Source of the DNA: Candidatus Cloacimonadales bacterium
GTDB lineage: Bacteria; Cloacimonadota; Cloacimonadia; Cloacimonadales; JAIOQZ01
DNA: 64,000 bases
Direction of reading: 5' to 3'
Assembly (NCBI GenBank): GCA_963665815.1
Contig: OY762463.1
Location: forward strand, 2,016,001-2,080,000
Below are positions 1 to 64,000 of this stretch, one piece after another; the stretch's first letter is position 1, and each line of letters opens with the position of its first letter. The position numbers and the translations under genes are program-made. The notes below the pieces were generated by a model. The model saw only the letters and a list, made by a program, of their open reading frames with translations. It made no database searches and was not told the origin of the DNA.

Positions 1-3000
1 TATTCCACTGCACAGGGAGTATATTCGGAACTTGTAGAGAAATACCCAATGTCCGAGTTCACAAAGAAATCCTTGTTATTCCTGTTAGAGAGCTTCTATT
101 ATGATGAAAAGTACAACGAAGTAATCCTTATGTCACTAGATCTTGAAAAAAACTATGCTGACAATAAAGCAATTGCAGATGTACTCCTCATGAAAGCGAA
201 AGCATACTTCATGAACAATTCACCGAATGAAGGACAGGCTACACTCGAGAATCTGATTAAAAGTCACAAAAATTCAGATACTCATTGGGATGCGATTCTA
301 TTCCAAGTGCAAAGAATCAAAGTTAAATCAGGAAATGTTGCGGCTGCAGATAAACTCAGTTCTTATATGTCCGGTTCAATTCCAAGAAAATATCAGGAAA
401 TTTTCGGTAAGGAACTCGCAGATCTCTATATAGAAATCCATGAGTACGATAAAGCACACACTCAGTTAATGGCAATGATCACCAAGTTTGATAATTCTGA
501 CAGATTCCCGGAATACCTCAGAAATCTGTTCCTCGTTAAAAACAACCTTAAGAAATATCAGGAAGTTGTCACTCTGGCAGGTAAGACAGACAAAATCATA
601 GAGCACTCCAAATTAAAAACTGAGCTTCTGCTTGAACTTGCTAAAGCTGAATTTAATCTTAAAAAATTCAAGGATGCCGAAAATACTATCGTTGAAATCA
701 TAGCATCTGAACCTAATGAAGCTGTGTTAATTGAAACAAAGCTTCTTTCAGCTGAAATAGACGAAGGAAAAAGGTTCCTGAACAAGGCTATAGACAAGTA
801 TCTTGCGTTATTGAATAAGGATAACTTCGATCGTAAAGACAAAGTTATCTATACAATAGCAAATATTTATTTTAACGATTTATCACAATACAGAACAGCG
901 TTAAAATACTACCAGCTGATATCCACAAACTATTCGAGTTCACAATATAATGCTTCTGCATATTTCCAGATAGCTCTCTGTTATGAGTATCTCGGAGAAT
1001 ACGATCTGGCACTGGCATCTCTACAGTCTATTCCCATGGAAACAGTTAATGATAAACAATTCAGGGAAAAGGTGTCTAACAAAATGGAGTATATAAGGAA
1101 TTTCCATATAGTAGATTATAAGAAAGCATTCACAAAACTTCTCATATCAATGAATGATTATGTTACAACAAACGATAAAATCGCTTTGAAAAAGGGTATG
1201 GCAGAAGTAATGTCACAGCATCTCAAGGATTTTGACAGTGCTGTAAGCATTACTGACGGAGAATCAGACGAACAGTTATTCTATGTAACAGCAAAGACTT
1301 TCCTTAAGGCTGCCGAAAAGGCTAAATGGGAAAAGAATCAAAAGGTATTTGCTGAAAATGTTGCAGGTGCTCTTGCTCAAATCAACAAAATGAAAGAGTC
1401 TGCAGAGACTACAGAACTTAATCTCTATGCAGATCTTCTCAGAGCGGATAATCCTGCAATGGTAATTCCATCAATAGAACAGTTTGTGAAGAACAATCCG
1501 GATTATTCACGAGTAAACAACTATCTATACAGGTTAATCAGATATTATGACTCATCAGATAATATTGAAAAAGAAGCTGAATATCTCAATCTTCTCAAAC
1601 AAGATGATTCAATTGCCGATGCGGATTATATGAACGCTAAAATCAAGCTTGCAGAGTATTATTACGGTAAAAACGATTTTGCCAACGCTCTCGTTAACTA
1701 CGAAGCTACTTCCGCATTGATCTCACTTTCCAGACCTTCCGTGCTTTACCATTACACAATAGCACTCAACAAGGCAGGGAATAAAACAAAATCCATGGAT
1801 AAATTAGTATTCCTTCTTAACAATGCCGGTGGTTTCCCGGAGTACTCAGAAGCTGTGAATACTTTGACAGGCTATTATATAGAATCGAGTGAATTCAAAA
1901 AAGCCCTGAACTACTATCAGCAGATTCCTGAAAACGAAAGAAATGATGCGTACTACAGAAGACTCTACACAATATATTCAGGACTGAATAATATAGAGGA
2001 ATCCAAACGTGCACTCCTGACTGTTCAGGATAAGAATTTCGACGAACTGGCTTCTGTTGCTGAGCTTCACATAAAAACACATGATTACTCACTCGCAGAG
2101 TATACATACAAACAGCTTATAGAGAAAGATCCGGGCAATAAATTTGCATACAGACTGGCGATTGCGAATCTGGCATACGACCAGGAAGACTACAGCAAAT
2201 CAATTGAGTATTTCAAGAAAGTCACAAATGAATACATAATGGGACAAGCAAACAAGAAAGAATTGGCTAAGAAGAATATTATATCATACTATCATATTGA
2301 TAATAGACCTAAAGCAGAAGAAATTCTTAAAAAGATGAAACCTATAATAGGTGAAGATCCTGATATTCAGGCAGAGATTAAAATACACGAAGCAATCTAC
2401 TATTCAAAAATAGATATCAAGAAAGCACGCAAGATAGTTGGTAAAGTTATTAAGAATAAAAAAATAGCCGGAACAATTGTCAATACAGCTCATTTCTGGC
2501 GTGGAACATTCCTGCTCAAAGAGAAAAATTCTGAAGATGCAATAAAAGATTTTTCTGTGGTGCTGAATTCTTCGAATAAAGCACTGGTAAATCAGGCTAA
2601 TCTGAAACTGGGAACATTATATTTTTCTCAGGAGAAATATGAACAGGCTCTGGATCATTATTTCAAGGTTATTAACGGAGACGAAACAGGTAAACTTGCA
2701 CTTGATGCCGCCCGGAATTTTGCATTTGTCTGTAAGACAATCGAAGAATGGGATAAGGCTATTTCAGCCTATGAACTGATTATGGATAAATGGGGTGACA
2801 AAGAATTGGAGTCCGATGCTGTCTTTAATATTGCATACTGTTATTATCGGGATAAGAGCTACCCTAAAGCTGTTTCCATGTTCGAGAAAGCTCTGCAGTT
2901 GATTGACTCTGAAGAACTGAAAGCAGAATCGCAGTATTGGATTGGTGAATCCTACATGGGAATGTACATGTATAATGAAGCTGTCACAGCATTTCTCAAG

Positions 3001-3186
3001 GTCAGCTATAACTACCCTGACCAGACAAGATGGTCTGCTACTTCCGAGCTTCAGGCTGCCGAGGCATATATTAAGCTGAAGAAATACGAAAGAGCTTTAA
3101 CACGTTTGAAATCAATAATAGCCAAGTACGGTGCCGGTAGTAACTGGGGAAAAATAGCTCAGGAAAAGATCAGTATAATTCAGTAG
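1..3186 (+). CDS. Large tetratricopeptide-repeat protein (5'-partial; frame is open from base 1)
   Basis: Many TPR-like helix pairs (AYFQIALCYEYLGEYDLAL, AVFNIAYCYYRDKSYPKA, SQYWIGESY); no stop between base 1 and the ATG at 49. Confidence 0.85.
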   Translation, partial: YSTAQGVYSELVEKYPMSEFTKKSLLFLLESFYYDEKYNEVILMSLDLEKNYADNKAIADVLLMKAKAYFMNNSPNEGQATLENLIKSHKNSDTHWDAILFQVQRIKVKSGNVAAADKLSSYMSGSIPRKYQEIFGKELADLYIEIHEYDKAHTQLMAMITKFDNSDRFPEYLRNLFLVKNNLKKYQEVVTLAGKTDKIIEHSKLKTELLLELAKAEFNLKKFKDAENTIVEIIASEPNEAVLIETKLLSAEIDEGKRFLNKAIDKYLALLNKDNFDRKDKVIYTIANIYFNDLSQYRTALKYYQLISTNYSSSQYNASAYFQIALCYEYLGEYDLALASLQSIPMETVNDKQFREKVSNKMEYIRNFHIVDYKKAFTKLLISMNDYVTTNDKIALKKGMAEVMSQHLKDFDSAVSITDGESDEQLFYVTAKTFLKAAEKAKWEKNQKVFAENVAGALAQINKMKESAETTELNLYADLLRADNPAMVIPSIEQFVKNNPDYSRVNNYLYRLIRYYDSSDNIEKEAEYLNLLKQDDSIADADYMNAKIKLAEYYYGKNDFANALVNYEATSALISLSRPSVLYHYTIALNKAGNKTKSMDKLVFLLNNAGGFPEYSEAVNTLTGYYIESSEFKKALNYYQQIPENERNDAYYRRLYTIYSGLNNIEESKRALLTVQDKNFDELASVAELHIKTHDYSLAEYTYKQLIEKDPGNKFAYRLAIANLAYDQEDYSKSIEYFKKVTNEYIMGQANKKELAKKNIISYYHIDNRPKAEEILKKMKPIIGEDPDIQAEIKIHEAIYYSKIDIKKARKIVGKVIKNKKIAGTIVNTAHFWRGTFLLKEKNSEDAIKDFSVVLNSSNKALVNQANLKLGTLYFSQEKYEQALDHYFKVINGDETGKLALDAARNFAFVCKTIEEWDKAISAYELIMDKWGDKELESDAVFNIAYCYYRDKSYPKAVSMFEKALQLIDSEELKAESQYWIGESYMGMYMYNEAVTAFLKVSYNYPDQTRWSATSELQAAEAYIKLKKYERALTRLKSIIAKYGAGSNWGKIAQEKISIIQ

Positions 3187-3758: not shown

Positions 3759-5132
3759 ATGAACACAAAACTTGGTACAGTCCTTATTGTTGATGATAAT
3801 GAAGACATCCTTTTCTCACTGGAACTGCTTCTTAAAACATCTGCCGAAAAAATAATCACCTTGAATAAACCTGATAGAATTATTAATATATTAAAGAATG
3901 AAACCATAGATGTAATCCTGCTGGATATGAATTTCAACGATGATACTATCAGCGGAAAAGAAGGTTTTTACTGGCTTGAAAAAATTCTGGAACAGGATTC
4001 TGAAGCAGTAGTGCTGTTCATAACAGCTTATGGAGGAGTGGATCAGGCTGTTAAAGCTGTTCATGCCGGGGCAACGGACTTTGTTCTCAAACCCTGGAAG
4101 AACGAAAAACTGATGACAACTATTGAATCTGCCAGTAAACTACGCAAAACACGTCGGGAAGCTCGACAGCTTAAAGAAAAGCAATCAGAACTGATCAATG
4201 TTACCAACAGTTCATTCCACGATCTTATAGGTATATCCAATGAAATGAACACTGTCTTTTCCACTATAAAGAAAGTAGCGAAAACCGATGCTAATATTCT
4301 TATTCTTGGAGAAAACGGTACAGGAAAAGAACTTGTTGCCAGAGCACTGCATAAAGCATCCGAAAGGTCTGACCAGATTTTTGTAAATGTTGATTTGGGA
4401 GCTATAAGCGAAACACTTTTCGAAAGTGAGTTATTTGGGCATGTGAAGGGCGCATTTACTGATGCCAAAAAAGACAGAATCGGTCGATTTGAACTTGCAT
4501 CTGAAGGAACGATATTTCTGGATGAGATTGGCAATCTTTCATTACCGCTTCAATCAAAACTTCTGCATGTCCTTGAGAATGGTAAAATTGTCAGGGTAGG
4601 TTCTAACAGGCAGATACCGGTCAATGTGAGATTCATCTGTGCAACAAACATGCCTTTATATAAAATGGTTCAGGAAAACACATTCCGTCAGGATCTTCTC
4701 TACAGAATCAATACTGTGGAAGTAAATTTACCTCCCCTGAGAGAACGCAGAGAAGATATAAAGCTTCTCGCTGATCATTTCCTGCAGCAGTTCGCAAAGA
4801 AATACAAAAAAAACATACGAAAAGTAAGTAAAAAAGCTATTCATGTTCTGGAAGAATACTCCTGGCCGGGAAACATCAGGGAACTGAGGCACTCAATTGA
4901 AAGAGCTGTAATTCTAAGTGATTCCGATCAGCTTAATGAAACTGATTTCCATCTGACACACGCTGTCGAATCCATAGATAACCATATTATGAGTTACAAT
5001 CTGGAAGAAGTGGAAAAGCAGACGATAAAGAAAGTAATCCGTAAGTATAAGGGAAATGTAACCAAAGCTGCCAAAGAACTTGGACTGACCAGAACATCTC
5101 TTTACAGAAGACTCGAAAAATACGGATTGTAA
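3759..5132 (+). CDS. NtrC-family sigma54-dependent response regulator (REC-AAA+-Fis HTH)
   Basis: VDD..LLDMN receiver, GENGTGKE Walker A, GAFTDA loop, FLDEIG Walker B, WPGNIREL, C-terminal HTH. Confidence 0.95.
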   Translation: MNTKLGTVLIVDDNEDILFSLELLLKTSAEKIITLNKPDRIINILKNETIDVILLDMNFNDDTISGKEGFYWLEKILEQDSEAVVLFITAYGGVDQAVKAVHAGATDFVLKPWKNEKLMTTIESASKLRKTRREARQLKEKQSELINVTNSSFHDLIGISNEMNTVFSTIKKVAKTDANILILGENGTGKELVARALHKASERSDQIFVNVDLGAISETLFESELFGHVKGAFTDAKKDRIGRFELASEGTIFLDEIGNLSLPLQSKLLHVLENGKIVRVGSNRQIPVNVRFICATNMPLYKMVQENTFRQDLLYRINTVEVNLPPLRERREDIKLLADHFLQQFAKKYKKNIRKVSKKAIHVLEEYSWPGNIRELRHSIERAVILSDSDQLNETDFHLTHAVESIDNHIMSYNLEEVEKQTIKKVIRKYKGNVTKAAKELGLTRTSLYRRLEKYGL

Positions 5133-5133
5133 T

Positions 5134-6489
5134 ATGCTGAATCATTCTTTCAGACTGAAGTGTATACTGAGATGTGTACTTCTCTTTGCATCAATTATGC
5201 TGATATTCCATCTGCATTACAGTACATCCCTTATATATACCAAGCTGCTTCTTTCCCTTGTGATCATTTTTCAGGTAATAGACCTTATTCATTTCGTGGA
5301 ACGTACAAATTATATTGTTTCAACTTTCCTGCAATCCATAAAGTACTCCGAATTCCGACAGTCTTTTGAAGTAGCAGATCTGGGAATATCTTTTCAGGGA
5401 CTCAAAGAAGCATTCAATAATGTTATTGTGGATTTCCAGAAGATGCGATCAGAGTCTTCGGAACATTACCAGTATCTCCAGAATGTAATACAGCATATTG
5501 GTATCGGACTGATTGCTTTCAGACATGATGGAAAAATAGAATTCATGAACAAAGCTGCTCAAAAGCTTTTCAAGCTCAAAGATCTGACTTATATTCAGAA
5601 ACTAAGTATCATTAGCAAAGATTTACCGGGAATTCTCTTCAAGATGAAGTCAGGAGAGAAAATCCTGATTAAGGCTGTTGATAAGCACAGAGAGCTTCAA
5701 CTCAGTTTAAATGCTACCGAATTCAAGCTTAGCGACAGATTCATTACGATTGTCAGCTTTCAGAATATAGGCAGCGAACTCGAAGAAAAAGAGCTTGAAG
5801 CCTGGCAGAAACTTATCCGTGTTATGACACATGAAATCATGAACTCAATCACTCCAATATCATCTCTTACGTCTACCGTAGATACTATGCTTGGAGGAAT
5901 TGCAGATCAGTGCAGTACAGAAAAAAACGCTGTATGCTCCCAGATATCTGACATACAGAGAGCAGTTAAAACTATCCAGAAAAGATCTGAAGGCTTAACT
6001 CATTTCGTGCAGTCATACAGAAATCTTACACATATCCCTGAGCCTAAATTTTCTAATGTATCAATCAATGAGTTGTTCAACAGAGTTATCCTGCTTATGC
6101 AGAATGAGCTGAGAAATGCCGGAATTGCAATAGCCGGACAATGCGATCCTGAAACTCTGGAAATTACAGCAGATGATGAATTAATAGAACAAGTTCTGAT
6201 AAACCTGATAAAGAATAGTATTAATGCTCTTTCCGGCAGAAGAAACGGTAATATAAACCTCTCAGCATTTCTGGCTGAAAACGGTATTGTTCAAATTAAC
6301 GTAACTGATAATGGAACAGGTATTCTGCCAGAGATTCAGGAAAAGATTTTTATCCCGTTTTTTACAACTCGTCAGCAGGGTTCAGGAATCGGTCTCAGCC
6401 TCACAAGACAGATTATGAAGCTGCATGGCGGAGCTATCAAAGTTAACTCTGAACAAAATGAAGGCACAACTTTCTCATTACTTTTCTAA
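5134..6489 (+). CDS. Membrane sensor histidine kinase (PAS + HisKA + HATPase)
   Basis: Two N-terminal TM segments, H-box MTHEIMNSITPI, N box NLIKNS, DNGTG, FFTT, GSGIGL. Confidence 0.93.
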   Translation: MLNHSFRLKCILRCVLLFASIMLIFHLHYSTSLIYTKLLLSLVIIFQVIDLIHFVERTNYIVSTFLQSIKYSEFRQSFEVADLGISFQGLKEAFNNVIVDFQKMRSESSEHYQYLQNVIQHIGIGLIAFRHDGKIEFMNKAAQKLFKLKDLTYIQKLSIISKDLPGILFKMKSGEKILIKAVDKHRELQLSLNATEFKLSDRFITIVSFQNIGSELEEKELEAWQKLIRVMTHEIMNSITPISSLTSTVDTMLGGIADQCSTEKNAVCSQISDIQRAVKTIQKRSEGLTHFVQSYRNLTHIPEPKFSNVSINELFNRVILLMQNELRNAGIAIAGQCDPETLEITADDELIEQVLINLIKNSINALSGRRNGNINLSAFLAENGIVQINVTDNGTGILPEIQEKIFIPFFTTRQQGSGIGLSLTRQIMKLHGGAIKVNSEQNEGTTFSLLF

Positions 6490-41161: not shown

Positions 41162-41238
41162 GGGTGATTAGCTCAGTTGGTTAGAGTGCTTCGTTGACAT
41201 CGAAGAGGTCACTAGTTCGAATCTAGTATCACCCACCA
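41162..41238 (+). tRNA. tRNA-Val(GAC)
   Basis: Acceptor GGGTGAT/ATCACCC, anticodon arm CTTCG-TTGACAT-CGAAG, TTCGA T-loop, encoded CCA. Confidence 0.97.
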
Positions 41239-41271
41239 TTAGATCATAAAATATCGAATAAAATATCTTAT

Positions 41272-41309
41272 AACAGCAGGTTAGGCAATAAAGTCCAGCC
41301 TGCTGTTTT
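41272..41309 (+). terminator. Hairpin terminator after the tRNA
   Basis: AACAGCAGG..CCTGCTGTT followed by T residues. Confidence 0.6.
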
Positions 41310-41346
41310 CTATTGATTATGATTGTTTTTGACACTTTTTGATTCA

Positions 41347-41379
41347 ATTGGTACCCAGATTGGTACCCACATGGGTACC
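41347..41379. repeat. Candidate integrase arm-type binding sites
   Basis: ATTGGTACCCA twice with 12-bp period, then an inverted copy TGGGTACC. Confidence 0.6.
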
Positions 41380-41421
41380 TTTTTAATTTGACAACTTTGG
41401 AAAAATATTTACTTTTTGAGT

Positions 41422-42504
41422 ATGGAAAGATTAAAGAAATGTATAAATAACTCGGGGTACAAAATTAAAATCAGGCTAAGAAAGCTGAGGACCACAATCA
41501 GTATATTGCTTGAATATAGATATACAAATTCAGAGGGAATTAGAAAAGTAACAAAACTTACATTGGATTCTCATCTCACCGGGGAAAAGAAAAACTTTAC
41601 TAAAGAAAGAGAGTTGCTTAAATCTGCTCATTATATACGAGACAAGTATGAATCACAATTACTTAATAAAGGTGCACAGATATTTGATGACAGGCTTAAC
41701 CACTCTTTGCACTCTTGGATTGAGAAAGAGTTGAAACACTATAAAAAGTCATCTCAAAAACCATGGATCAACCTTCTTGTACATCTGAAAAAATTCAAAC
41801 CTGACCTTGATCTAAATGAGATCTCTATAGAATTTTGTGAAAACTTTAAAGACTATTTGCTGCATAGTACTAATCTTGCTCATAACTCAGCACAAACCTA
41901 TTTTACACGGTTTCGAAGTTCATTAAAGAAAGCTTACGATAGAAAGCTTATCCCAGTCAATGTTTGTCAAAGCATTAAGATATCTGCAAAACCATCTGAA
42001 AAGGTGTTTTTAACTCTTGAGGAACTAAGAATAATAGAAAGCATTGATCACTCTAACAAAGATGTAAAAAATGCTTTCCTCTTCTCCTGTTATTCAGGAT
42101 TAAGATTCTCAGACACAGAGAAACTCAGATTCTCAGATATTGAAAACAATCATATCTCAATAAAAATGCAGAAAACAAATGAATTTCTCAGAATGAAGCT
42201 CCATCCTAAGGCTATGCAGATAATAGAACTTCAAAAAAGAAACCATCAGGAACTTTGCTTCAAACTTGGTGATTATCAAGTATTCTGGAATAAGTTCCAA
42301 AGATTTATCAAGAAGTCAGGGCTCAATAAGAAGATTACTTTTCACACTGCCCGTCACACATTCGCTACACAATGTATATCTTTTGGTGTAGATATCTATA
42401 CTGTATCAAAACTTCTTGGACATAAATCTGTTTCAACAACACAAGTTTATGCAAAGTTGATTGACAGAAAAAAAGATGCTGCAATAGATTCATTGAGATT
42501 TTAG
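41422..42504 (+). CDS. Tyrosine recombinase / site-specific integrase
   Basis: Catalytic set GLRFSD, FHTARH, LLGH, TTQVY; directly downstream of the tRNA. Confidence 0.96.
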   Translation: MERLKKCINNSGYKIKIRLRKLRTTISILLEYRYTNSEGIRKVTKLTLDSHLTGEKKNFTKERELLKSAHYIRDKYESQLLNKGAQIFDDRLNHSLHSWIEKELKHYKKSSQKPWINLLVHLKKFKPDLDLNEISIEFCENFKDYLLHSTNLAHNSAQTYFTRFRSSLKKAYDRKLIPVNVCQSIKISAKPSEKVFLTLEELRIIESIDHSNKDVKNAFLFSCYSGLRFSDTEKLRFSDIENNHISIKMQKTNEFLRMKLHPKAMQIIELQKRNHQELCFKLGDYQVFWNKFQRFIKKSGLNKKITFHTARHTFATQCISFGVDIYTVSKLLGHKSVSTTQVYAKLIDRKKDAAIDSLRF

Positions 42505-42513
42505 ATTCTGTTG

Positions 42514-42825
42514 TTAAACTTTTTTTTCTATATCCCTTCTTGATGGAATTCCCCTCATAAAATTTTTTAAGTCTTTTCTTCTATAAAGAATTGTCCCACC
42601 ATTTTTAGTATAGGGTATTGAATTTTGGTAGTTATAACTATACATGGTGCTTTTCTTCTTATTAAGAAATTTTGCAGCCTCAGTAATTGTCAGTAGATCT
42701 TCATCTGACTCTTCTTTGGTTTTGTCTGCCTTGGTTAGAAACGTCCTCAGGTCGTTCATTATTGGAGTTACAACTTCACTAAACGCTTCTTTTACAATGA
42801 TTCTCAAACTGTCCTCTATATTCAT
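42514..42825 (-). CDS. Excisionase-like helix-turn-helix protein
   Basis: LLTITEAAKFL..KSTMY..IPYTKNGGTILYRRKDL; convergent with the integrase. Confidence 0.88.
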   Translation of the reverse strand: MNIEDSLRIIVKEAFSEVVTPIMNDLRTFLTKADKTKEESDEDLLTITEAAKFLNKKKSTMYSYNYQNSIPYTKNGGTILYRRKDLKNFMRGIPSRRDIEKKV

Positions 42826-43789
42826 TTTGCCCTCAGTCAATAGCTTAAGCAGATTATAAAAAATATTAATTAAGTTTCGACGTTATGTAAAAATACAACA
42901 TTGTTCTAAATTACACTCTACATATTGCATTTATCAATACAATCTCATGATATACAATCTATTATGTCAAACACTTTTTCATTGATAATGTCCTCGAAAG
43001 CTCTTGAACTCATCACAAAAAAAATGTTTTATAGAACTTAAGAAAATAATCAATATTAGCAAAGTGCTAATTTATAGTAAGTAATCCTCAAAAAAGCAGG
43101 TATTAGGATTTTCACGACAGGAACTCGACTTTTCTCAAGTCTTCCCATTATACGAATTTTCCAGTTTTTGACATATTTGAATTAATGGATTGTCAAAATG
43201 AACTTTAGATATTTTGTAGTGTTTATTTTTCGCTACAAAATGTATATTTTCATATAACAAACATTGCAATATAAAATTATATTCACATATTGAGGAGGCT
43301 AACTCAAGGAATTTTAGTATTTTAGTGGGTGTAAAACTGAAAATCTACTTTTCTTTTTCCGCTAATTGTTGACTATGAAATCTCAAAGATAGCTAACTTA
43401 CATATATAAAGAGATTTAGGAGTATATCTTGAATATATAGCAAAATGCTGACAATGTCGATAGCTCAATAAAAAAATCCAAAGCATCAATTGAACTTGGA
43501 CGCTTGAACTGGAAATTTGCATAAATTAAGATCAGAGATTAAAAATTTCAAGAGTAAAACATTATGACTCGACTTTACTCGACTCATCTCGATGCTTTTT
43601 GATAGGTTTTGAGAATACCTATATACCGAAAAAGAATACTTTGAACAATTATAAGTTTCAAGCAAAAGATAAAAGAAATTGTTCCAAAATTTTTTAAAAT
43701 TGTTATTGAAATTGGAAAAGTTAAGCACTAAGATGAATCTTGGCAATAATGAATGGTACAGAAACTGAAGATAAAAATTTCTTGAAGTG

Positions 43790-44075
43790 TTAGAAAAGTA
43801 TGCAAAATCTATTTGCCTCATAATATTCTTCTTCCATTCTCTGTTTAACTAACTGAGCTTTTATGCGTATCATCTGCACATAGTAGTTATATGCGGACTC
43901 TGCTCCGTCAAGCCATGAGCTCGCAGGACGAAGTCCGAGAGTCTCCACTCCGAAGTCTGTATAACGTAAGTTCGAAGACCATAGGAGGTACATTACTTTT
44001 CAAGGAACCGTTTTCCCCAATATATTCAGTTCAAGTCGTGTTCGTCAATAATTTCTCTGTTTTCACCAATAAACT
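43790..44075 (-). pseudogene. Degenerate last Rhs cassette (core remnant + hairpin insert + short tip)
   Basis: FIGENREIIDEHDLN*IYWGKRFL remnant, insert, then LDGAESAYNYYVQMIR.. Confidence 0.75.
43913..43999. repeat. Structured two-hairpin element, copy 1
   Basis: Homologous to 58589-58674; flanked by TCAAG direct repeats. Confidence 0.85.
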
Positions 44076-56141: not shown

Positions 56142-57548
56142 TCAATTAGTCAGCTTGTACTTTCTGAGATATAATCTTGAATCAACGAAGTTGCTATCAG
56201 AATACTCCAGTGAAACACTATAGTAATATCCATCCTTTAATGCACTACCTATCCAATATCCATCTTCGTTTCTTAATTTCCTGCTAAAGAATACTCGATT
56301 GTCTTTGATAATTCCATGCATGAAGTAGTAAACATAAGACTTAAATATTAAATCATCTTCTGCTACTGAAATGTTAAACAACTGATCCTGAACTAAATCC
56401 TCAGTTTCTAACTCAAGTTTTTCATTAATACATAATAAAACTTGTTCCGGATTTATCCAGTAATCTAGATCATCACCTTTCTGATAATATGATTGTGCTT
56501 TTGTACCGGTAACAAATATTCTATCATTGGCTGAGAAAATAGTTAGATCCAGTTCAAGCTGATCGATAGGTTTAAAATTCGTTGTATATGAATCGAAGAA
56601 GTTTATGAACTTAAGGTTAGTTTGAACAATATTTTCTTTTCCCCCATCTCGAGTAGATAGCTTAGCAATGAAAACTCCATTATAACGTGCTGAATAATCC
56701 AGTGATGAAACAAGAATCTTATCTTTTGAGAAGATAAACTCATTCAAGAAATATCCTAATATATACACTTTATCATTTAAACAGGCAATATCAACTCCTG
56801 AATTGAAATTTTTACTCTTGAACTTCCTGAACCATTTCTTCTTTCCATTTGACGAATATTTGCATGCAAACATATTGTTTGTTCTATTATAAGTCAGATT
56901 ATTCTTGAAGGAGGAGTATGTTAATCCTCTCTCAAATGATCCTGTCAAGTATACATTGTCATTTCTATCAAGGCACATACCATGTATCCAACTGAATTCA
57001 TTGAGTACTACTTTTCTCGCCCAGATTAATGCCCCATTTTCAGAAATTTTCATTACAAATGATTGTCTATCATGTAATATAAATCCCAATTTAAGAACCA
57101 ATTCATCATCAAAATACAACTTTCCGGAAAAAGAACCTGATATGATAATGTTATTGTTTGAATCAACAACTATATCTCTGGTATGCAATCTTCCAAACAT
57201 ACGATATAATGTCGTGTAGCCTGATCCTGATTTTACTTTCTTTGTTGTTTTACGTACATATTCTCCATGCAGTTGTTTAATCCATAACACTTTCATAGTG
57301 CTGTCCAGTTTAGCAATAAAGGAACTTCCTGTTTCGGAAGAAGTCAAATTATGATCTCCGATAGAGCTATATCCACCCTCGCAGTTACCGATTATTACAA
57401 TGCTTTTATCGCTCATCACTACAGTTTTCTTTGCTCTGATTCCATGACATTTAATATTTGTTTCTGTTTCTAAAGCTAATGAATAAACATTATAACATGC
57501 AATGATAAAGAAAAATAGAACTGGAATTTTTTTTATTGAATATTTCAC
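56142..57548 (-). CDS. Exported beta-propeller (SBBP-like) protein, putative immunity protein
   Basis: GTGA overlap with the toxin stop; signal peptide; FIAKLDS..W, IVVDSNNNIIISGSF, LDRNDNVYLTGSF. Confidence 0.75.
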   Translation of the reverse strand: MKYSIKKIPVLFFFIIACYNVYSLALETETNIKCHGIRAKKTVVMSDKSIVIIGNCEGGYSSIGDHNLTSSETGSSFIAKLDSTMKVLWIKQLHGEYVRKTTKKVKSGSGYTTLYRMFGRLHTRDIVVDSNNNIIISGSFSGKLYFDDELVLKLGFILHDRQSFVMKISENGALIWARKVVLNEFSWIHGMCLDRNDNVYLTGSFERGLTYSSFKNNLTYNRTNNMFACKYSSNGKKKWFRKFKSKNFNSGVDIACLNDKVYILGYFLNEFIFSKDKILVSSLDYSARYNGVFIAKLSTRDGGKENIVQTNLKFINFFDSYTTNFKPIDQLELDLTIFSANDRIFVTGTKAQSYYQKGDDLDYWINPEQVLLCINEKLELETEDLVQDQLFNISVAEDDLIFKSYVYYFMHGIIKDNRVFFSRKLRNEDGYWIGSALKDGYYYSVSLEYSDSNFVDSRLYLRKYKLTN

Positions 57549-58466
57549 TGTTCTATCCCCATAATATCGCTCGTATAAAAATCTGTACCCCCACTATTGT
57601 AAGTAGTTCTTTCGGTGAAGAAAATCTTCTGAACATCATTGTCTCTCAGAGTTTTTAACTTTGAATAGTAAGAGCTTTGAGGATCAGCCATAGTTTTATC
57701 ATACCATGAAGTTTTCATGCCAACTTGATTACCCCATGCTTCATCTTCAAGTTGTAATTTTCCCAAAGGTGTGCAGTATAAACGATTATACTCTTGAATT
57801 CCCAACCTCATTAATTGACCAACATGAACATTCTCATGACTAAAGGATTGATAAGGAGTGATCAAAGTTTTTCGGGTAAAAATACTTCCAATAAGAGGTA
57901 TTTTGCTTAACACTGTTGTTTTCTCCTTATTTATATATGTTTTATTATGATTCCATATTACTAAATTCATTCGAACATGTACTCCATTCACGTTGGATTT
58001 AGCGAGTGTTGAATTTATTCCAGTACGTCCGAAAAATCTCCCATCACAATATCCTAGTCCAGTACTTAAGTCATTCACTAGTGTGTTATAGTTTTTATCA
58101 GTTCCCTTAAGGCAAGTTTCTACGATTGTATCTACAAGTGCTTCAGCATAATCGGTTGAGATTTGATTGCCTACTCCAAAAACATTTATATTATCTATGT
58201 TAAGGTTGTCCAATATTAGCTCTCCATTTCTTGTTTTACCTTCGAGTTTCTTCTTCACTTCATCCCTCACATATTCAGTGGCGTATTCATTGTATGTTCT
58301 ATCATTTATACTATTACTTGCAAGTTCAATTTTTTGTTTCTTAACCCCACTTGTAGTGTTTCCTTTTTCTTTCTTCTTCTCCGCTTTCTTCCTTTTCTCA
58401 GTTGGGTAACCTGCCCAGGCTTCAAGCCCACCACAGGCATCTACTTCTTCTAATCTACAATTCATT

Positions 58467-58588
58467 TCAAACTCAGCAACATCATCCCATCCATTACTAC
58501 CAGTGTATATTCCCCTGAACCCCCGGTACAAACTTTGTAATTTAGCATACTGCTCCTGACGATATGATAATGAGAGTGCTCCGTCAAG
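58467..58588 (-). repeat. Linker-B repeat (second copy at about 61580-61700)
   Basis: Encodes DGA(L/I)SLSY(R/H)QEQYAKLQSLYRGFRGIYT(G/D)SNGW(D/N)DVAEFE in both copies. Confidence 0.9.
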
Positions 58589-58674
58589 CTATGAGCTCGC
58601 AGGACGAAGTCCGAGAGTCTCACCTCCGAAATTCGTAGGATGTAATCCGAGAATCATAGGAGGCACATTACTTT
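58589..58674. repeat. Structured two-hairpin element, copy 2
   Basis: Homologous to 43913-43999; flanked by TCAAG direct repeats. Confidence 0.85.
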
Positions 58675-58753
58675 TCAAGGAACCGTTTTCCCCAATATAT
58701 CCAGTTCAAGCCGTGTTCGTCAATAATTTCTCTGTTTTTCAAAACCTGGAGAA

Positions 58754-58777
58754 GATAAAGCCTTCACGTGGCAGGCT
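58754..58777 (-). terminator. Cassette-end hairpin
   Basis: Plus strand AAAGCCTTCACGTGGCAGGCT, overlapping the LRR gene stop. Confidence 0.6.
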
Positions 58778-60611
58778 ATTGTTGATTTCTTACTTCCTTA
58801 AGCTTCTCTAAGAATTCAAGTTCCTCATCATAGGATTTGAATGAGCGTGAAATGTTTATTTCGAAATCAAGATTATTAATAAAAGGCATATCAAGTATTT
58901 CATTTATATCAATATCGTTTACATCATTTAAACTAAGACTCTTTAAATTAATTAGGAAACTTAATGCTTCTATACCTTCAAGGGGATTTTCTGATAATGC
59001 GAGTCCTTTCAGATTCCTCATTTTACGCAAGAAATCAATATTTGATATATTGTTATACCCTAGACTAAGTGACAATAATGCTTTAGTGTCTTCTGGATTC
59101 ATTATGCATTCAATTCGATTCTCTGATGCATATAGAAATTTTAAACTATATAGATTTCTCAAATTAACTATTTTTAGATTATTTCTCGACAATAACATTT
59201 CACGGATTTTGTTATCGGGTACGAAATTTCCCATTTCTCTTATTTTACTTCCTTGAATCTTTATGTACTCTAAAGAAGGACAAGAATTAAGACCATCAAT
59301 ATTAACAATATTTGAACCATCCAAATTTAGATTTTGAAATGAGAAAAGGTTTGAAAAATCAGGGATATAATCAATTTTGGATTGTTCAATTTCAACTTCC
59401 TTTAAGTCTGTTAGTGCAATCAATTCTTTTATATTTTCCAGTTCTGTATTATTTCCTGCATTTTGGAAATTAATGTAAGAATTAGCCATCCACCTATCCT
59501 TATAGTAAACTATCCTTTTTAAATTTTTCATATACTTAATTCCCTTTATGCTTTTACATTTGAAAAGTTGCAATGTAGAATCAAGTTTATCAAAACCGTC
59601 AACAGAAGGGTGTCTGCAAAGAAGTATATCATTTATATTCTGCAAGTCAGAAGGATAAAGATCACGATCATGTATATCAACTAAATCTCGAACAAAATTC
59701 TCAAACACATCATCATCAAACCTTATTGGTTTCTCTTTCTCCCATAGAACTACAGATTTGTTTTGAAACCATATCCATTCAAGTGAGTCTAATGATGAAA
59801 GTGACTTTATATCTTCAACAGGATTGTTGTTTACCCAAATTTCAAGCATTTTTTTGCATTTCAGTAATGGCTTAATACTATTTATTCTATTATTATCCAA
59901 CCATACATAAAGTAATTCAGGATTATTACCAAGAGTTGAGATGTCCTTAATGTTATTGTTCTGAAGATTGACATCAATCAATTCTGTTAAACTTGAGATT
60001 CCGTAAATGTCCTCAATATCATTAAAGGCTGCACTTAATTTCTGGAGCCTCCTGTTCTTCATTTTTACACTAATTTTTCTGATATTGTTATGATTCAAAC
60101 TAAGTACTCTCAGTTTTTTTAATTTTCGCAAGGGTGAAATATCTTCAATAAGATTATCATCAAGATATAGCTCCTCAAGCTTGTGAAGTTTACTTAATGG
60201 AGAAATGTCCTTAATGTTATTCCCTCTTAAGTCGAGGTACTTTAAATTTTTCAAACTATTAAGAAACCTGATATCTGTAATCTCATTGCTTGCCAGCGAA
60301 AGATGCTCTGTTGACTTTAGATTCTTGATTCCATTAAGGTCATCAATACTCATGCAATCCAGAATTAACGTATCTATTTCTGAGAACTTCTTTAGACCTT
60401 CTAAGGACTTAATCCTGTTTCTTGATAGATTTAGATATGATAGATCGCTGGAATCAATATCATCAAAGTTGATAAGATCCTTGTGTATCTTTGCTATTCT
60501 TCTGTTATCGTTATCTAATTCTGAGACACTGAAGCTTCCACAGAAAAGTTGAGTAGCTGATAATAGAAATAATAGCATTACAACAGATTTTATTCTTTTT
60601 ATGTTTTTCAT
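58776..60611 (-). CDS. Exported leucine-rich-repeat protein, putative immunity protein
   Basis: GAGG RBS, signal peptide, internalin-like LxxLxLxxNxIxDISPL repeats in two blocks. Confidence 0.9.
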   Translation of the reverse strand: MKNIKRIKSVVMLLFLLSATQLFCGSFSVSELDNDNRRIAKIHKDLINFDDIDSSDLSYLNLSRNRIKSLEGLKKFSEIDTLILDCMSIDDLNGIKNLKSTEHLSLASNEITDIRFLNSLKNLKYLDLRGNNIKDISPLSKLHKLEELYLDDNLIEDISPLRKLKKLRVLSLNHNNIRKISVKMKNRRLQKLSAAFNDIEDIYGISSLTELIDVNLQNNNIKDISTLGNNPELLYVWLDNNRINSIKPLLKCKKMLEIWVNNNPVEDIKSLSSLDSLEWIWFQNKSVVLWEKEKPIRFDDDVFENFVRDLVDIHDRDLYPSDLQNINDILLCRHPSVDGFDKLDSTLQLFKCKSIKGIKYMKNLKRIVYYKDRWMANSYINFQNAGNNTELENIKELIALTDLKEVEIEQSKIDYIPDFSNLFSFQNLNLDGSNIVNIDGLNSCPSLEYIKIQGSKIREMGNFVPDNKIREMLLSRNNLKIVNLRNLYSLKFLYASENRIECIMNPEDTKALLSLSLGYNNISNIDFLRKMRNLKGLALSENPLEGIEALSFLINLKSLSLNDVNDIDINEILDMPFINNLDFEINISRSFKSYDEELEFLEKLKEVRNQQ

Positions 60612-60624
60612 CTATTCCTCTTTT

Positions 60625-62463
60625 TTATTTGAAATTCTCATCAAGGAAATTTTTCATCCATTCACGTGATTCCCTAAACCTCCTTTGCGAGGCCCTATGT
60701 CGTTCCAAGTAAAACTCAGGTAATCTTTGATGTATATCAGGTACCGTGTATGAATCTACTGATTTATAGGAGTACATAAATCTTGCATTGTCTAGCAAAG
60801 ATGGGGCAATAATTTTAGATATTCTTATACATGTGTCCCTTTCATACATATCTGGAAAATCTTCTTCCTTGAAATTAGGATGAGTTTGAAAACAATATAC
60901 AGGAAGTTGATGTTGGGCTTCATGACTCCATTCATGCATGTACATATCTTGTGGTGACCTACTTACATCAGGTGCAGTTCCTGATATTGAAGACCAGTTA
61001 TCCTCATTACTGAAACCATATGCTTTTGTCTGTGACCATCTAATTACAGTCATAGATATTTCAGGATGTCCAGGATTTGGTATGGACCACCATGAAGATT
61101 CTTTTGCTGATGGAGGAACATCTCTTCCATAATTATCTGGATTCAAGAGTAAAAGTGCATTATAGATTTTCTGAGTTTCTCCATTCCCTAAATCTATGGT
61201 TTTAGTCGTCAACGTATTGGCAGCTACTATATTCAACGGATCTTTCAAGAATGCTTCGATAGTCGCAATAACTTGTATATCAATCTGGTCCTCGGTCATT
61301 TCTCCTATTATATGAACTCTTTTCAAAAAGTTATCGAACTGAATGTTTGGGAAATGCTCATCAAGCAAGGGCTTAATTTTGTCTTTGAAACTTCTTGTTG
61401 CTTCTTTGTTCAAATCTGCACCATATAAATTAGTATTAACTCCATTTTCACCTCTTCTTGCCCCTTGAGCTCCTTCCTCCTCAGCTTTCCCCTTTTTCTT
61501 ATCCTTTATTGCACTTCTTCCAGCAGTCACCCAAAGCAACCAGTGCCCAGACTCTTGTATCTCTCTATCCATCATTTGCTCAAACTCTGCAACATCATTC
61601 CATCCATTACTATCAGTGTATATTCCCCTGAATCCCCGGTACAAACTTTGTAATTTAGCATACTGCTCCTGATGATATGATAATGAGATTGCTCCGTCCA
61701 GCTCTACAAAGTTTGCAGGATTGTTACCGCAATATACATACGGACTGTCAAACTGCTCTGCCGGGTCAAGAGAGTGCCACCTACCTATTTGCGGGTCAAG
61801 GAACCGTTTTCCCCAATATATCCAGTTCAAGCCGTGTTCGTCAATAATTTCTCTGTTTTTTCCAATAAATCTGTACTCCGTACTCTGGCTGCAGAGCATC
61901 GGTACTTTCATACCAAACGGATAGAATGTGTTTTTCTGGATTACCAGAGCTGTACCGTCAGTATTCTCGGTAAACACTACCCGGATATTGCCAAGGTGGT
62001 CTTTAAGTTCATATTCGTATCGCCACTGCTGTTCTCCGACCTGAGCTGTAAAGTCTCTTACCTGCCTTCCGAAAGATGTGTTAATTACAATCTCATCCTC
62101 AGAAGCAGTGTCTTCTGCATAGTGAGTATATACAAGACCGTTCACATAGTTAACTTTCTGGGTTACTCTGTCGTCTGCTGTAACTATCTTCTGCAGTCTT
62201 TCTCCCGTTGCAGAATACACAAAGCGGATTCTGTTCTTCATGTCGTCCGCACCGTCCGTGCGTTTTATCATCAGTTCCGGGAGATTAAACAGATTGTAGC
62301 GGATATCAAATCCCTTGTTCCTGTCTTTAATCATGTTACCGTTTGAGTCGTACAGGTTTTCGTCTTCCGTACTGCTGCTGAATCCGTCTATAAAGCCTGT
62401 TCCTGTTACAGAAGCATTGTCTGTAACACCAATAAGCCTGTTGCCGCTGTAGGAGTAAGTGGT
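60625..62463 (-). CDS. Orphan Rhs core fragment + HExxH tip (5'-truncated; frame open upstream of ATG 62334)
   Basis: TYSYSGNRL, YDSNGNMIKDRNKG, KDHLGNIRV, DPQIGRWHSLDP, GNNPANFVELDG, linker B, HEWSH. Confidence 0.9.
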   Translation of the reverse strand, partial: TTYSYSGNRLIGVTDNASVTGTGFIDGFSSSTEDENLYDSNGNMIKDRNKGFDIRYNLFNLPELMIKRTDGADDMKNRIRFVYSATGERLQKIVTADDRVTQKVNYVNGLVYTHYAEDTASEDEIVINTSFGRQVRDFTAQVGEQQWRYEYELKDHLGNIRVVFTENTDGTALVIQKNTFYPFGMKVPMLCSQSTEYRFIGKNREIIDEHGLNWIYWGKRFLDPQIGRWHSLDPAEQFDSPYVYCGNNPANFVELDGAISLSYHQEQYAKLQSLYRGFRGIYTDSNGWNDVAEFEQMMDREIQESGHWLLWVTAGRSAIKDKKKGKAEEEGAQGARRGENGVNTNLYGADLNKEATRSFKDKIKPLLDEHFPNIQFDNFLKRVHIIGEMTEDQIDIQVIATIEAFLKDPLNIVAANTLTTKTIDLGNGETQKIYNALLLLNPDNYGRDVPPSAKESSWWSIPNPGHPEISMTVIRWSQTKAYGFSNEDNWSSISGTAPDVSRSPQDMYMHEWSHEAQHQLPVYCFQTHPNFKEEDFPDMYERDTCIRISKIIAPSLLDNARFMYSYKSVDSYTVPDIHQRLPEFYLERHRASQRRFRESREWMKNFLDENFK

Positions 62464-62499: not shown

Positions 62500-64000
62500 T
62501 TATCTGTATCTTATTCTTTCATCTTGTTCTGCAATTTTTTTTGATTCCTCATCCAGAGGATTTCCATATAGATTCAGTGTAAAATCCTCTGTTTCTGGAA
62601 TTTTTTCCTCAAACCCACGTATTGACTCAATATAGTTGTCTTGTAGGCTCAATACTTCCAAATTTTTCAACTCCGAAAAATCAGGTATTGACTTGAGCCC
62701 AGTGTTCCTCAGACCCAAGAATTTGAGACTGGTAAGTTTGCTAAGTGTATTTGTGTTCATTAATGGATAGCTAGAGAAACATATTAACTCAAGTTTTGAG
62801 GAATTGTTCACTTCCGGAATATAGTAAATTCTATTATTGCTGAACTCAAGTTTTCTGGGTGCGTGAAACTCTGAGAATGTTAGTGGAGATAGATCCGAAA
62901 TATTATTATCAAATAGTATCATCTCATCAATAGAATATCCCAATGCCAGATTCGTAATATCATTAATCTTATTTGAATGAAGATCCAGAATACTAAGATT
63001 AGTAATCCCTTTTATGAAAGGAACCTCAAACAAATTATTACTTCCTAATCTTATATTTCTTAAGCATGTCAAAGTGTTTAATCCTGTTATACTACTAATA
63101 ATATTTTTCCCTGCTTGTAATAATTTCAACATTGGCAAGTTATAATTGAAATGAAGTTCATGTATTCTGTTACCGAAAACATCAAGGAAGAAAAGTGAAT
63201 CCAAAGAAGTAATATGTTTAATTGAAGAAATGTTATTGAATGATAATGATAAACTCTTTAATCTTCTCATTTCAGAAATTTTAGCTTTTTCAATTAGGTT
63301 GTACTCGAAACTCAAACTTTTAAGCTGCGATTTACTGTCCTGCAAAACAATCTTTCTGAGAGGAGAATAATGGATTTCTAGCTTATCAATGTATGGGGAT
63401 AGCATTTTATCATCAATATTCCTTAAATATACTCTTGATAGGTATAACTCTCTAAGATTTCTGTTTTGTCTAAGGCTTTTTAGATTCTTTAATTTTACAC
63501 CACCTAAAGCTACATATCTTAAACTCTCCATGTGTCTTAAATCAGGAACTTCTCTTAATGCAGGTATTGCTAAATCCAGCATTTCCAAATTTGAGAGAGC
63601 TTTTAGCTCAGGTAAGTACTCAATACACTTGCTTGCAATATAATATTCCTCACTTCCAATTACAAGAACCTTAAGGTTACTCATATATTTTAGTATAGAC
63701 AAGTCAGTGTATTTGCTTACATCTGATACAATTCCAAGTTCAATTATTCTTTCATTTAACTCAATTGAATTGAAACGACTCAATAAGTATCTATTTTTTG
63801 ATAACTCTACACGTCGAATTTTTGCATCATTTCTTTTATACCATTCGATAACTTTATTTTTTTTATACCATTCGTTATCTTCATTCACAAGAACTAGAAC
63901 TTCAATACTTTCTAAATCCGCTATTTCCATTGCTTTTGAGGAGTCTATCATGCACCTTCTAAGCATTTTCCCAAGTTCAGTTTCTCTTGACCGTATCCAG
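62500..64000 (-). CDS. Leucine-rich-repeat protein (5'-partial), putative immunity protein of an upstream Rhs
   Basis: LRR repeats; frame stays open to the window end. Confidence 0.88.
   Translation of the reverse strand, partial: WIRSRETELGKMLRRCMIDSSKAMEIADLESIEVLVLVNEDNEWYKKNKVIEWYKRNDAKIRRVELSKNRYLLSRFNSIELNERIIELGIVSDVSKYTDLSILKYMSNLKVLVIGSEEYYIASKCIEYLPELKALSNLEMLDLAIPALREVPDLRHMESLRYVALGGVKLKNLKSLRQNRNLRELYLSRVYLRNIDDKMLSPYIDKLEIHYSPLRKIVLQDSKSQLKSLSFEYNLIEKAKISEMRRLKSLSLSFNNISSIKHITSLDSLFFLDVFGNRIHELHFNYNLPMLKLLQAGKNIISSITGLNTLTCLRNIRLGSNNLFEVPFIKGITNLSILDLHSNKINDITNLALGYSIDEMILFDNNISDLSPLTFSEFHAPRKLEFSNNRIYYIPEVNNSSKLELICFSSYPLMNTNTLSKLTSLKFLGLRNTGLKSIPDFSELKNLEVLSLQDNYIESIRGFEEKIPETEDFTLNLYGNPLDEESKKIAEQDERIRYR

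Follow-up and report, generated by a model that had tools for sequence, protein, structure and literature searches.

A modular hairpin repeat in orphan Rhs toxin cassettes of one Candidatus Cloacimonadales genus, a possible source of portable homology for cassette deletion and reshuffling

Exchange between orphan Rhs or CDI cassettes and the expressed gene is believed to proceed through homology in their conserved core. Small repeats accompany silent cassettes elsewhere: the neisserial intergenic mosaic elements, dRS3 and Correia repeats occur near the silent pilS and mafB cassettes, where they lie between the cassettes, are known targets of phage integrases or transposases and are thought to aid exchange. 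REP sequences are extragenic and dispersed, with tens to hundreds of copies that are often arranged as inverted doublets, and they occur on the flanks of their RAYT gene. BOX of Streptococcus pneumoniae is composed of boxA - boxB(n) - boxC, the modules being independent stem-loops, and has terminal inverted repeats, target duplications and many unrelated loci (PMC3049150). Rickettsia palindromic elements (RPE), some 150 bp long, code for a conserved peptide and are inserted in numerous expressed genes that are unrelated to each other (PMC10969869). No published description of hairpin repeats in Rhs orphans was found in the open-access literature. Here we describe such a family. The reading that we favour, at a probability of roughly one half (0.52), is that of a modular, non-autonomous, genus-restricted hairpin repeat of the REP/BIME, BOX or RPE kind, which sits in silent Rhs cassettes and offers portable homology for their deletion and reshuffling.

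The window is the whole stretch of DNA that was analysed, 64,000 nucleotides of contig OY762463.1 (positions 2,016,001 to 2,080,000; assembly GCA_963665815.1). Its genome, a single contig of 3.96 Mb, is referred to as G000, and G001 denotes the only other species of the genus. A preliminary description of the window had placed two copies of a double-hairpin element at 58589-58674 and 43913-43999, and these coordinates proved exact. Copy 1 (86 nt) and copy 2 (87 nt), both given on the + strand, consist of hairpins B and C and scored 98 bits (E 1.1e-19) and 92.1 bits, respectively, with R1, a covariance model of the two-hairpin form built from 25 copies. Hairpin B of copy 1 (58593-58621, + strand) reads GAGCTC / GCA / GGAC-GAA-GTCC / GA / GAG-T-CTC, with a predicted fold, and is identical in copy 2 (43917-43945, + strand), an exact 29-nt match; this 29-mer occurred twice in the window and in none of 100 shuffles. 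Hairpin C differs between the copies with its pairing kept, as had been described. In copy 1 (58623-58663, + strand) pairing and predicted fold give three stacked helices (CCTCC/GGAGG, ATTC/GAAT and GGAT/ATCC), set apart by the internal loops GAA/CATA and GTA/GA, and in copy 2 (43948-43987, + strand) the predicted fold is of the type GTCT / TAAC-GTAA-GTTC / AGAC. The + strand carries the G-Y-A/G-A loops and is antisense to the Rhs toxin genes, which lie on the minus strand of the window.

The host cassettes were compared with an orphan cassette without any element (60625-62334, minus strand; the intact cassette), recognised by a TIGR03696 match (61693-61923, model positions 2-75) and by paralogue comparison. 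Its stretch 61702-61795 (minus strand) is the uninterrupted counterpart of the element-bearing sites: it holds the codons for DPQIGRWHSLDP..NNPANFVE of the Rhs core end and autocleavage region, the encoded sequence at about these positions being DPQIGRWHSLDPAEQFDSPYVYCGNNPANFVE. Upstream of copy 1 lies a short Rhs core remnant (..KNREIIDEHGLNWIYWGKRFL; 58680-58760, minus strand), the frame of which stops at a TAA on the element edge. The immediate TAA of the preliminary description was confirmed, with both window copies reading GKRFLEK and then TAA on the minus strand, where the upstream frame is stopped. Copy 1 is followed by an orphan toxin C-terminal region (LDGALSLSYRQEQYAKLQ...; 57545-58588, minus strand) in which a frame of 328 aa is open from 58531. 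The first ~80 nt of this region are common to the toxin linker of the full-length gene, and it had no match in Pfam. A truncated toxin remnant (LDGAESAYNYYVQMIRIKAQ...; 43790-43912, minus strand), found by sequence comparison, follows copy 2, and its similarity to paralogues stops about 100 nt beyond, where an integrase-bearing segment starts. A tRNA gene (70 bits), a tyrosine integrase (Phage_integrase and SAM_5) and an HTH_17 protein at window 41162-42840 adjoin the truncated last cassette that carries copy 2; they probably mark one end of an integrated element by which the Rhs array was cut. At two places behind orphan toxins where one would look for immunity genes (window 58776-60611 and 62500-63966, minus strand), large leucine-rich-repeat proteins are encoded.

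Both copies are flanked by TCAAG pentamers (58584-58588 and 58675-58679 for copy 1; 43908-43912 and 44000-44004 for copy 2), which had been taken for direct repeats around a foreign element. They are native Rhs codons and therefore not a target duplication: CTTGA(C) encodes L-D (L-D/E) at both places, and the right-hand place reads GAGCTTGACGG in the full-length Rhs gene. A CTT before and a CTT just after the element in both copies would suit an intervening sequence that is removed or skipped at the level of RNA or the ribosome (intron-like, or a bypass of the gene-60 type), since take-off and landing on this pair would restore the frame into DGA... and the orphan would be read as GKRFL-DGALS.... 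We regard such skipping as very improbable. The junction is common to both copies by descent, other sites lack a matching codon pair (the pre-LDGA site in 2082448 would land on TGA) and orphans of Rhs family 1, the family of the window, have no upstream start. The product would be devoid of the autocleavage motif, and the comparison with Rfam that the preliminary description had proposed gave no match on the element within window 40000-64000 at E values up to 10, group I and group II introns included.

The element had been proposed to be selected for its structure, with covarying stems, and this held in a test on 36 distinct sequences from the two genomes that carry the family. Paired bases filled 93.4% of the cells and changes on both sides were present at 15 of 21 pairs; in the inner helices of C (helices 5 and 6) pairing rose to 99.2%, and 7 of 8 pairs had changed on both sides. 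None of 500 shuffles attained as much covariation as was observed; since the sequences share descent and were aligned by fitting to the model, this count is not a probability. Partners slid out of register were 28–63% paired. The effect is large despite the kinship of the copies. Conservation was concentrated in unpaired bases. All B units had G-N-A, G-A and a bulged T (35/35 each), and C units had G-Y-A in 28/32, G-A in 29/31 and CATA in 30/34, whereas the apical loops were free, with at least 15 different sequences. A reading of the internal loop as a K-turn was rejected, as the upper stem co-varies in Watson-Crick pairs, and readings of AGGAUGU as a CsrA-like site and of AGGAGG as a Shine-Dalgarno-like site were rejected because these motifs vary across variants.

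The toxin-antisense strand is likelier to be the folded one, by a modest margin, because G-T exceeded A-C among paired cells (22 vs 7) and because the predicted folds of the window + strand had better z-scores than those of its complement (−2.7 vs −1.7, −1.2 vs 0.1 and −3.5 vs −1.5). The thought that the element is a chance palindrome or an assembly artefact has a negligible probability. It is opposed by the absence of the 29-mer from all shuffles, by the strong covariation and by the number of copies, 24 in a genome assembled as one contig and 8 in the other species; in addition, contigs from three runs of one sample extend over the flanks and are interrupted at the repeat itself, which is what a true repeat predicts. 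Apparent joints among these contigs were paralogous copies from other places in the genome. The preliminary description was thus right in not treating the copies as artefacts, with 24 loci in one contig and a second species.

The units share one plan, which on the window + strand runs lower stem, G-Y-A, upper stem of 3–4 bp, loop of 3–4 bases, upper stem, G-A and lower stem. The C unit has an extra outer helix, CTCC/GGAG, set off by GAA and CATA. With R1, 24 full B+C copies and 4 single-B matches were found in G000 and 8 matches in G001, and profile searches of G000 gave about 35 A/B units and 26 C units. Units were arranged as single B or A, C+B, C+B+A, B+C'+C and B(5)+C, and variant B and C units were shuffled around the most conserved stretch, GAGAGTCTC. 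At an intergenic, ORF-free locus (G000 3455640-3456216), one C came after a perfect tandem of 30-nt B units (4.9 copies), while its counterpart in G001 had 2 B units. This locus, for which Rfam gave no match at E values up to 10, could be where the units originated or an independent non-coding element. A unit of about 178 nt lies before it and was also found 4–5 times in tandem at a non-orthologous place in G001 (L183).

The family resembles BOX in being modular, in its stem-loop modules and in its variable tandem middle modules (4.9 B units in G000 vs 2 in G001), and in that frames stay open across the element and transcribed or coding DNA is tolerated. It differs from BOX in replacing target bases and in the placement of 23 of 24 copies in one kind of locus. 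Terminal inverted repeats, sought by eye, were not convincing, although ..ATGAGCTC and GGAGGTACAT.. at the element ends agree at about 9 of 12 positions if gaps are allowed. The likeness to REP, BIME and REPIN sequences lies in imperfect palindromes of 25–40 nt in which unpaired or mismatched bases are conserved and a G-T-A-G motif occurs, in mosaic combinations of units and in copies that act as recombination hot spots. Here, in contrast, all units are direct, the 24 full copies lie mostly within coding homology and the genome's RAYT-like gene goes with an unrelated palindrome.

Comparison of filled with unfilled paralogues and orthologues placed the family at no fewer than seven different sites: between EDE and (W)YHYG, at the Arg codon of G-R-W in both Rhs families, at RFL|DPQIGR|W, NNPA|NFVE|LDGA and SP|YVYCH|NDP, at the 3' end of a duplicated gene remnant S and at the intergenic place. 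Target-site duplications were absent from these seven sites, at each of which 3–20 target bases were replaced. The left flanks differed (GGTACCA, TCCA, GTCAA, GGTA...), and the hosts were limited to Rhs cassettes, the S remnant and the one intergenic place. An orthologous site was filled in G000 (5016-5137, with 18 nt of the S remnant replaced) and empty at an array end in G001, which indicates that units have moved since the two species split. Further steps were visible among paralogues, which formed a series from no unit, to B only at G|R|W, to that same B plus C+B before LDGA. One cassette contained an A unit duplicated 79 nt apart, both copies having a private variant in common, and a G001 cassette had one C+B right after RFL and another before LDGA.

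Gene S, beside a PilO-like gene, encodes 156 aa (G000 2103978-2104448). Its last ~200 nt are duplicated, in antisense, at the 3' end of Rhs family-2 orphan cassettes (G000 2818-3020, 1-118, 1057867-1058035, 2110540-2110800 and 3358119-3358282), and these duplicates look like a relic of a downstream homology arm used in cassette addition.

The two window copies occupy the same place, which had been read as a target preference. With the family at so many sites, we attribute their common position to a shared deletion architecture. In both copies, RFL-EK-stop is followed by C, B and LDGA in this order. Of copy 1, the left half, including the junction CCTTGAAAAGTAATG, aligned with the G001 element before WHSLDP (site 1'; score 84 over 98 nt), and the right half aligned with the B unit and junction of the element before LDGA (site 2; 60 over 62), the switch point falling within the shared stretch GAGACTCTC. 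Since the halves match two different flanking elements, the window copies are, on these alignments, chimeras, namely deletion products of an exchange between two direct elements flanking the autocleavage segment. The targeted replacement of this segment by a foreign element, as formerly proposed, gives way to recombination between two elements that were already on either side of it.

Other junctions were of the same nature. The cassette at G000 2012494 (A ... YHYGVRYYDPQLG ... A') had counterparts at 2108074 and 1054727 that are deletion products, with one A left and the intervening stretch gone. A hybrid hairpin in G001 (L218 15867-15907), with the 5' half of B and the 3' half of C, lay at the edge of a synteny block. 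Among the inner edges of long G000/G001 synteny blocks, 4 of 15 were at most 30 nt from an element (332912, 5131, 521854 and 3358382), and at one of these element-linked edges the downstream toxin differed while the upstream side was orthologous. All junctions seen are explicable by homologous exchange within 9–20 identical bases.

The preliminary description had set the element apart from a genome-wide REP family, and this was upheld, with 23 of the 24 full G000 copies in orphan Rhs toxin-cassette arrays, mostly inside coding homology; the remaining one lay between two ordinary genes. The G-Y-A strand was antisense to the toxin gene in 23/23 cassette copies, a count that, like the others, overstates independence because only two genomes carry the family and the copies are related by descent. 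With the origin of G000 near 2.70 Mb and the terminus near 0.52 Mb, the G-Y-A strand of the 24 copies was leading in 10, lagging in 12 and ambiguous in 2, so that element orientation was independent of the direction of replication. Cassettes carried 0, 1, 2 or 3 elements. Rhs frames longer than 1000 aa had uninterrupted cores in 4/4 cases (G000, 1354 and 3337 aa; G001, 1298 and 2951 aa). When 5.8 billion proteins were searched with the peptide that the element encodes, only 6 matched, all from G000, and none among proteins of 463–2000 aa, the latter being weak evidence. The orphan arrays at G000 2005-2016 kb, 1052-1060 kb and 3355-3364 kb had no full-length Rhs gene within the 8–11 kb examined, and their orphans have possible starts of their own at the FGMR methionine.

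The effect on the reading frame depended on the Rhs family. Every element in family 1 introduces a stop or frameshift between core remnant and toxin. In family 2 (..NKFLYNGKEFEDE..), 9 elements in 8 cassettes were read through in frame, adding 27–40 aa; the net additions (+81, +39 and +36 nt) were multiples of three. Exceptions to this read-through were one triloop copy that was out of frame and one that ran into stops. The encoded peptide was not conserved (MVLGFKSYELRS.. vs MVFELTFYRLRS..), because the stems co-vary. The in-frame insertion into open reading frames of family 2 is shared with RPE; the differences are that the peptide here is not conserved and that Rhs cassettes, and silent ones only, are hit. 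Clustering of small repeats at the silent cassettes of a variable surface or toxin gene is also a feature of the neisserial repeats, from which the present family differs by its location inside the conserved coding head and by the lack of a known enzyme.

The confinement to orphans and the stops and frameshifts of family 1 could also mean that the host selects the element as a lock in cis, either an RNA or DNA insulator that blocks read-in to a silent toxin or a breaker of homology that stabilises arrays of immunity genes. The ~230-nt homology region is indeed split into short pieces, and toxin frames downstream are still open (328 aa after copy 1). This explanation is improbable in our view. 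Units of family 2 are read through with nothing blocked, several orphans in the same arrays are without an element (window 61818, 55778 and 51682) and one set of copies is intergenic, without a toxin. No terminator-like site was found at the element and promoter-like sites (3) did not exceed those in shuffles (1.5 ± 1.5), leaving a promoter or terminator role unsupported. The lock would moreover be leaky, because ~80 nt of homology to the full-length gene are left downstream of the element in family 1; toxin exchange with that gene is for this reason still conceivable.

Beyond the two species the family was not detected. R1 found it in 2 of 151 genomes of the order, corresponding to 1 of 55 genera, and in none of the other 149; with BLAST, 2 of 41 genomes had the element. 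Two specific patterns each gave 0 matches in metagenome contigs, and the 5 pattern matches in viral contigs were all due to chance. A loose pattern matched at least 115 stretches of genome contigs, and of 80 loci inspected 77 were chance and 3 true. These 3 true loci, among the matches listed, came from one MAG record and equalled G001 loci in the stretches compared, and were not counted as independent. Other genera with orphan arrays had several core matches (G006, 14; G016, 13; G022, 8) with no interruption at model position ~29, while core matches here started at 29 (3 matches), at 30 (1) and otherwise at 17–38. Two matches in G003 that start at 30–31 had suggested interrupted cores and were rejected, being natural linker variants without hairpins.

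Partner enzymes were sought among Y1/HUH proteins, tyrosine recombinases, integron integrases and reverse transcriptases. Neither G000 nor G001 encoded an integron integrase (best TIGR02249 score 78.7 bits, cut-off 265), and no reverse transcriptase was found in the genome search. G000 had 4 tyrosine recombinases, of which just one (window 41416-42504, beside the tRNA) was near an array. A RAYT-like HUH gene (G000 2133692-2134177, HYHLL motif) was flanked by nested palindromes of its own, of ACCATTGCGAAGG type. Homologues occurred in 18 of 41 genomes, as against 2 of 41 for the element, including 16 of 39 relatives outside the genus, all without the element. The partners named in the preliminary description, an island integrase or a RAYT, are not supported: the former is one of the 4 tyrosine recombinases and adjoins a single array, and the latter goes with unrelated repeats and has homologues in element-free genomes. 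The unit profiles had no significant match in 6 HUH loci, and no parent insertion sequence with matching ends was found among the Y1/HUH loci searched; an IS200-like element of G001 had other hairpins. RAYT, IS200, integron integrase and reverse transcriptase were rejected as partners on the grounds of unrelated hairpins, distribution or absence. Palindromes derived from IS200/IS605 are likewise set apart by unrelated hairpins, by the varying left flanks and by the lack of a replication-strand bias. The RAYT-like gene and its palindromes, located 6.5 kb from an Rhs cassette, constitute another repeat system with no relation to the present one.

These results bear on the possibility of a dedicated recombination site on a folded strand, comparable to attC, at which a recombinase or nuclease would read the unpaired bases and link cassettes of toxin and immunity genes with Rhs heads or with one another, while the site stays readable as protein. 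As in attC, a structure is conserved rather than a sequence, one strand is distinguished by its unpaired bases, terminal loops vary and arrays of promoterless cassettes contain the sites. Such a site would account for conserved unpaired bases beside co-varying stems and free loops, for the favoured strand (G-T 22 vs A-C 7, and the fold z-scores), for the shuffling of B and C variants around GAGAGTCTC, for synteny breaks between G000 and G001 at elements with differing downstream toxins, and for an orientation fixed in 23/23 copies and in frame in 8 cassettes. We nevertheless consider it unlikely. An integron integrase (78.7 bits against 265) and a reverse transcriptase are lacking, most arrays have none of the 4 tyrosine recombinases beside them, and the HUH genes, with their unrelated hairpins, do not track the element. 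Cassettes have 0–3 elements, not one each as at the 3' end of attC cassettes, and the elements lie inside the homology region of a reading frame. The junctions are at varied places with target bases replaced, long Rhs genes are without a partner site, and homologous exchange in 9–20 identical bases explains every junction seen. Inspection of the alignments revealed no invariant pair of attC core boxes R''/L'' and L'/R' (RYYYAAC ... GTTRRRY) at the element ends.

We return to the favoured reading, that of a non-autonomous repeat. Its units would be copy-and-paste repeats that enter DNA not selected for immediate expression, namely junk DNA between orphan Rhs toxin cassettes and the conserved heads of these cassettes, with a few target bases replaced at each entry. 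Copies in direct orientation would then act as portable homology, an exchange between them deleting the intervening DNA and joining cassette heads to other toxins. For the window copies, the C half of a pre-WHSLDP element would have been joined within GAGACTCTC to the B half of a pre-LDGA element, and this deletion would have removed the Rhs autocleavage segment and left the in-frame TAA. Copying may proceed without a dedicated transposase, by template switching or gene conversion, or by way of a factor that reads the conserved loops. The units would be tolerated only in silent cassettes and need not serve any function for the host. Three roles had been put forward in the preliminary description, and among these the mobile mini-element fits best; the recombination site holds in the sense of portable homology only, and the silencer for Rhs family 1 only.

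Several features are less readily explained by a passive repeat. The near-invariant unpaired bases, next to free loops and co-varying stems, look like the binding site of a specific factor, and mismatches of this kind should disappear from a palindrome that is purely selfish and maintained through hairpin repair. The fixed orientation of the 23 cassette copies is not predicted by passive copying, unless selection on stop codons filters the orientation. The in-frame elements of Rhs family 2, being multiples of three, hint at selection for translatability and fit poorly with pure junk. Insertion that replaces 3–20 bases without duplication matches no well-described mechanism of small repeats. 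The presence of invariant unpaired bases, fixed orientation, frame-keeping and base replacement is compatible with a dedicated factor that would recognise the folded strand. The most specific form of this thought, which we rate as quite unlikely, is a coding counterpart of attC: a factor would read G-Y-A/G-A on the toxin-antisense strand and join cassettes at units without Rhs homology, and the units would be kept open for translated fusions of Rhs and toxin.

The reach of these findings is limited by the small size of the family and by its restriction, within the collections searched, to one genus. Within this genus, a small structured repeat has taken over a stretch of core homology and supplies portable homology of its own. 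The element marks breakpoints between the arrays of the two species, erases the autocleavage motif in some cassettes and is in frame in others. If it is only selfish, it would be a clear bacterial case, outside Rickettsia, of palindromic repeats in coding homology that drive the decay and reshuffling of cassettes. If a factor reads the invariant loops, it would represent a new way to move toxin and immunity genes.
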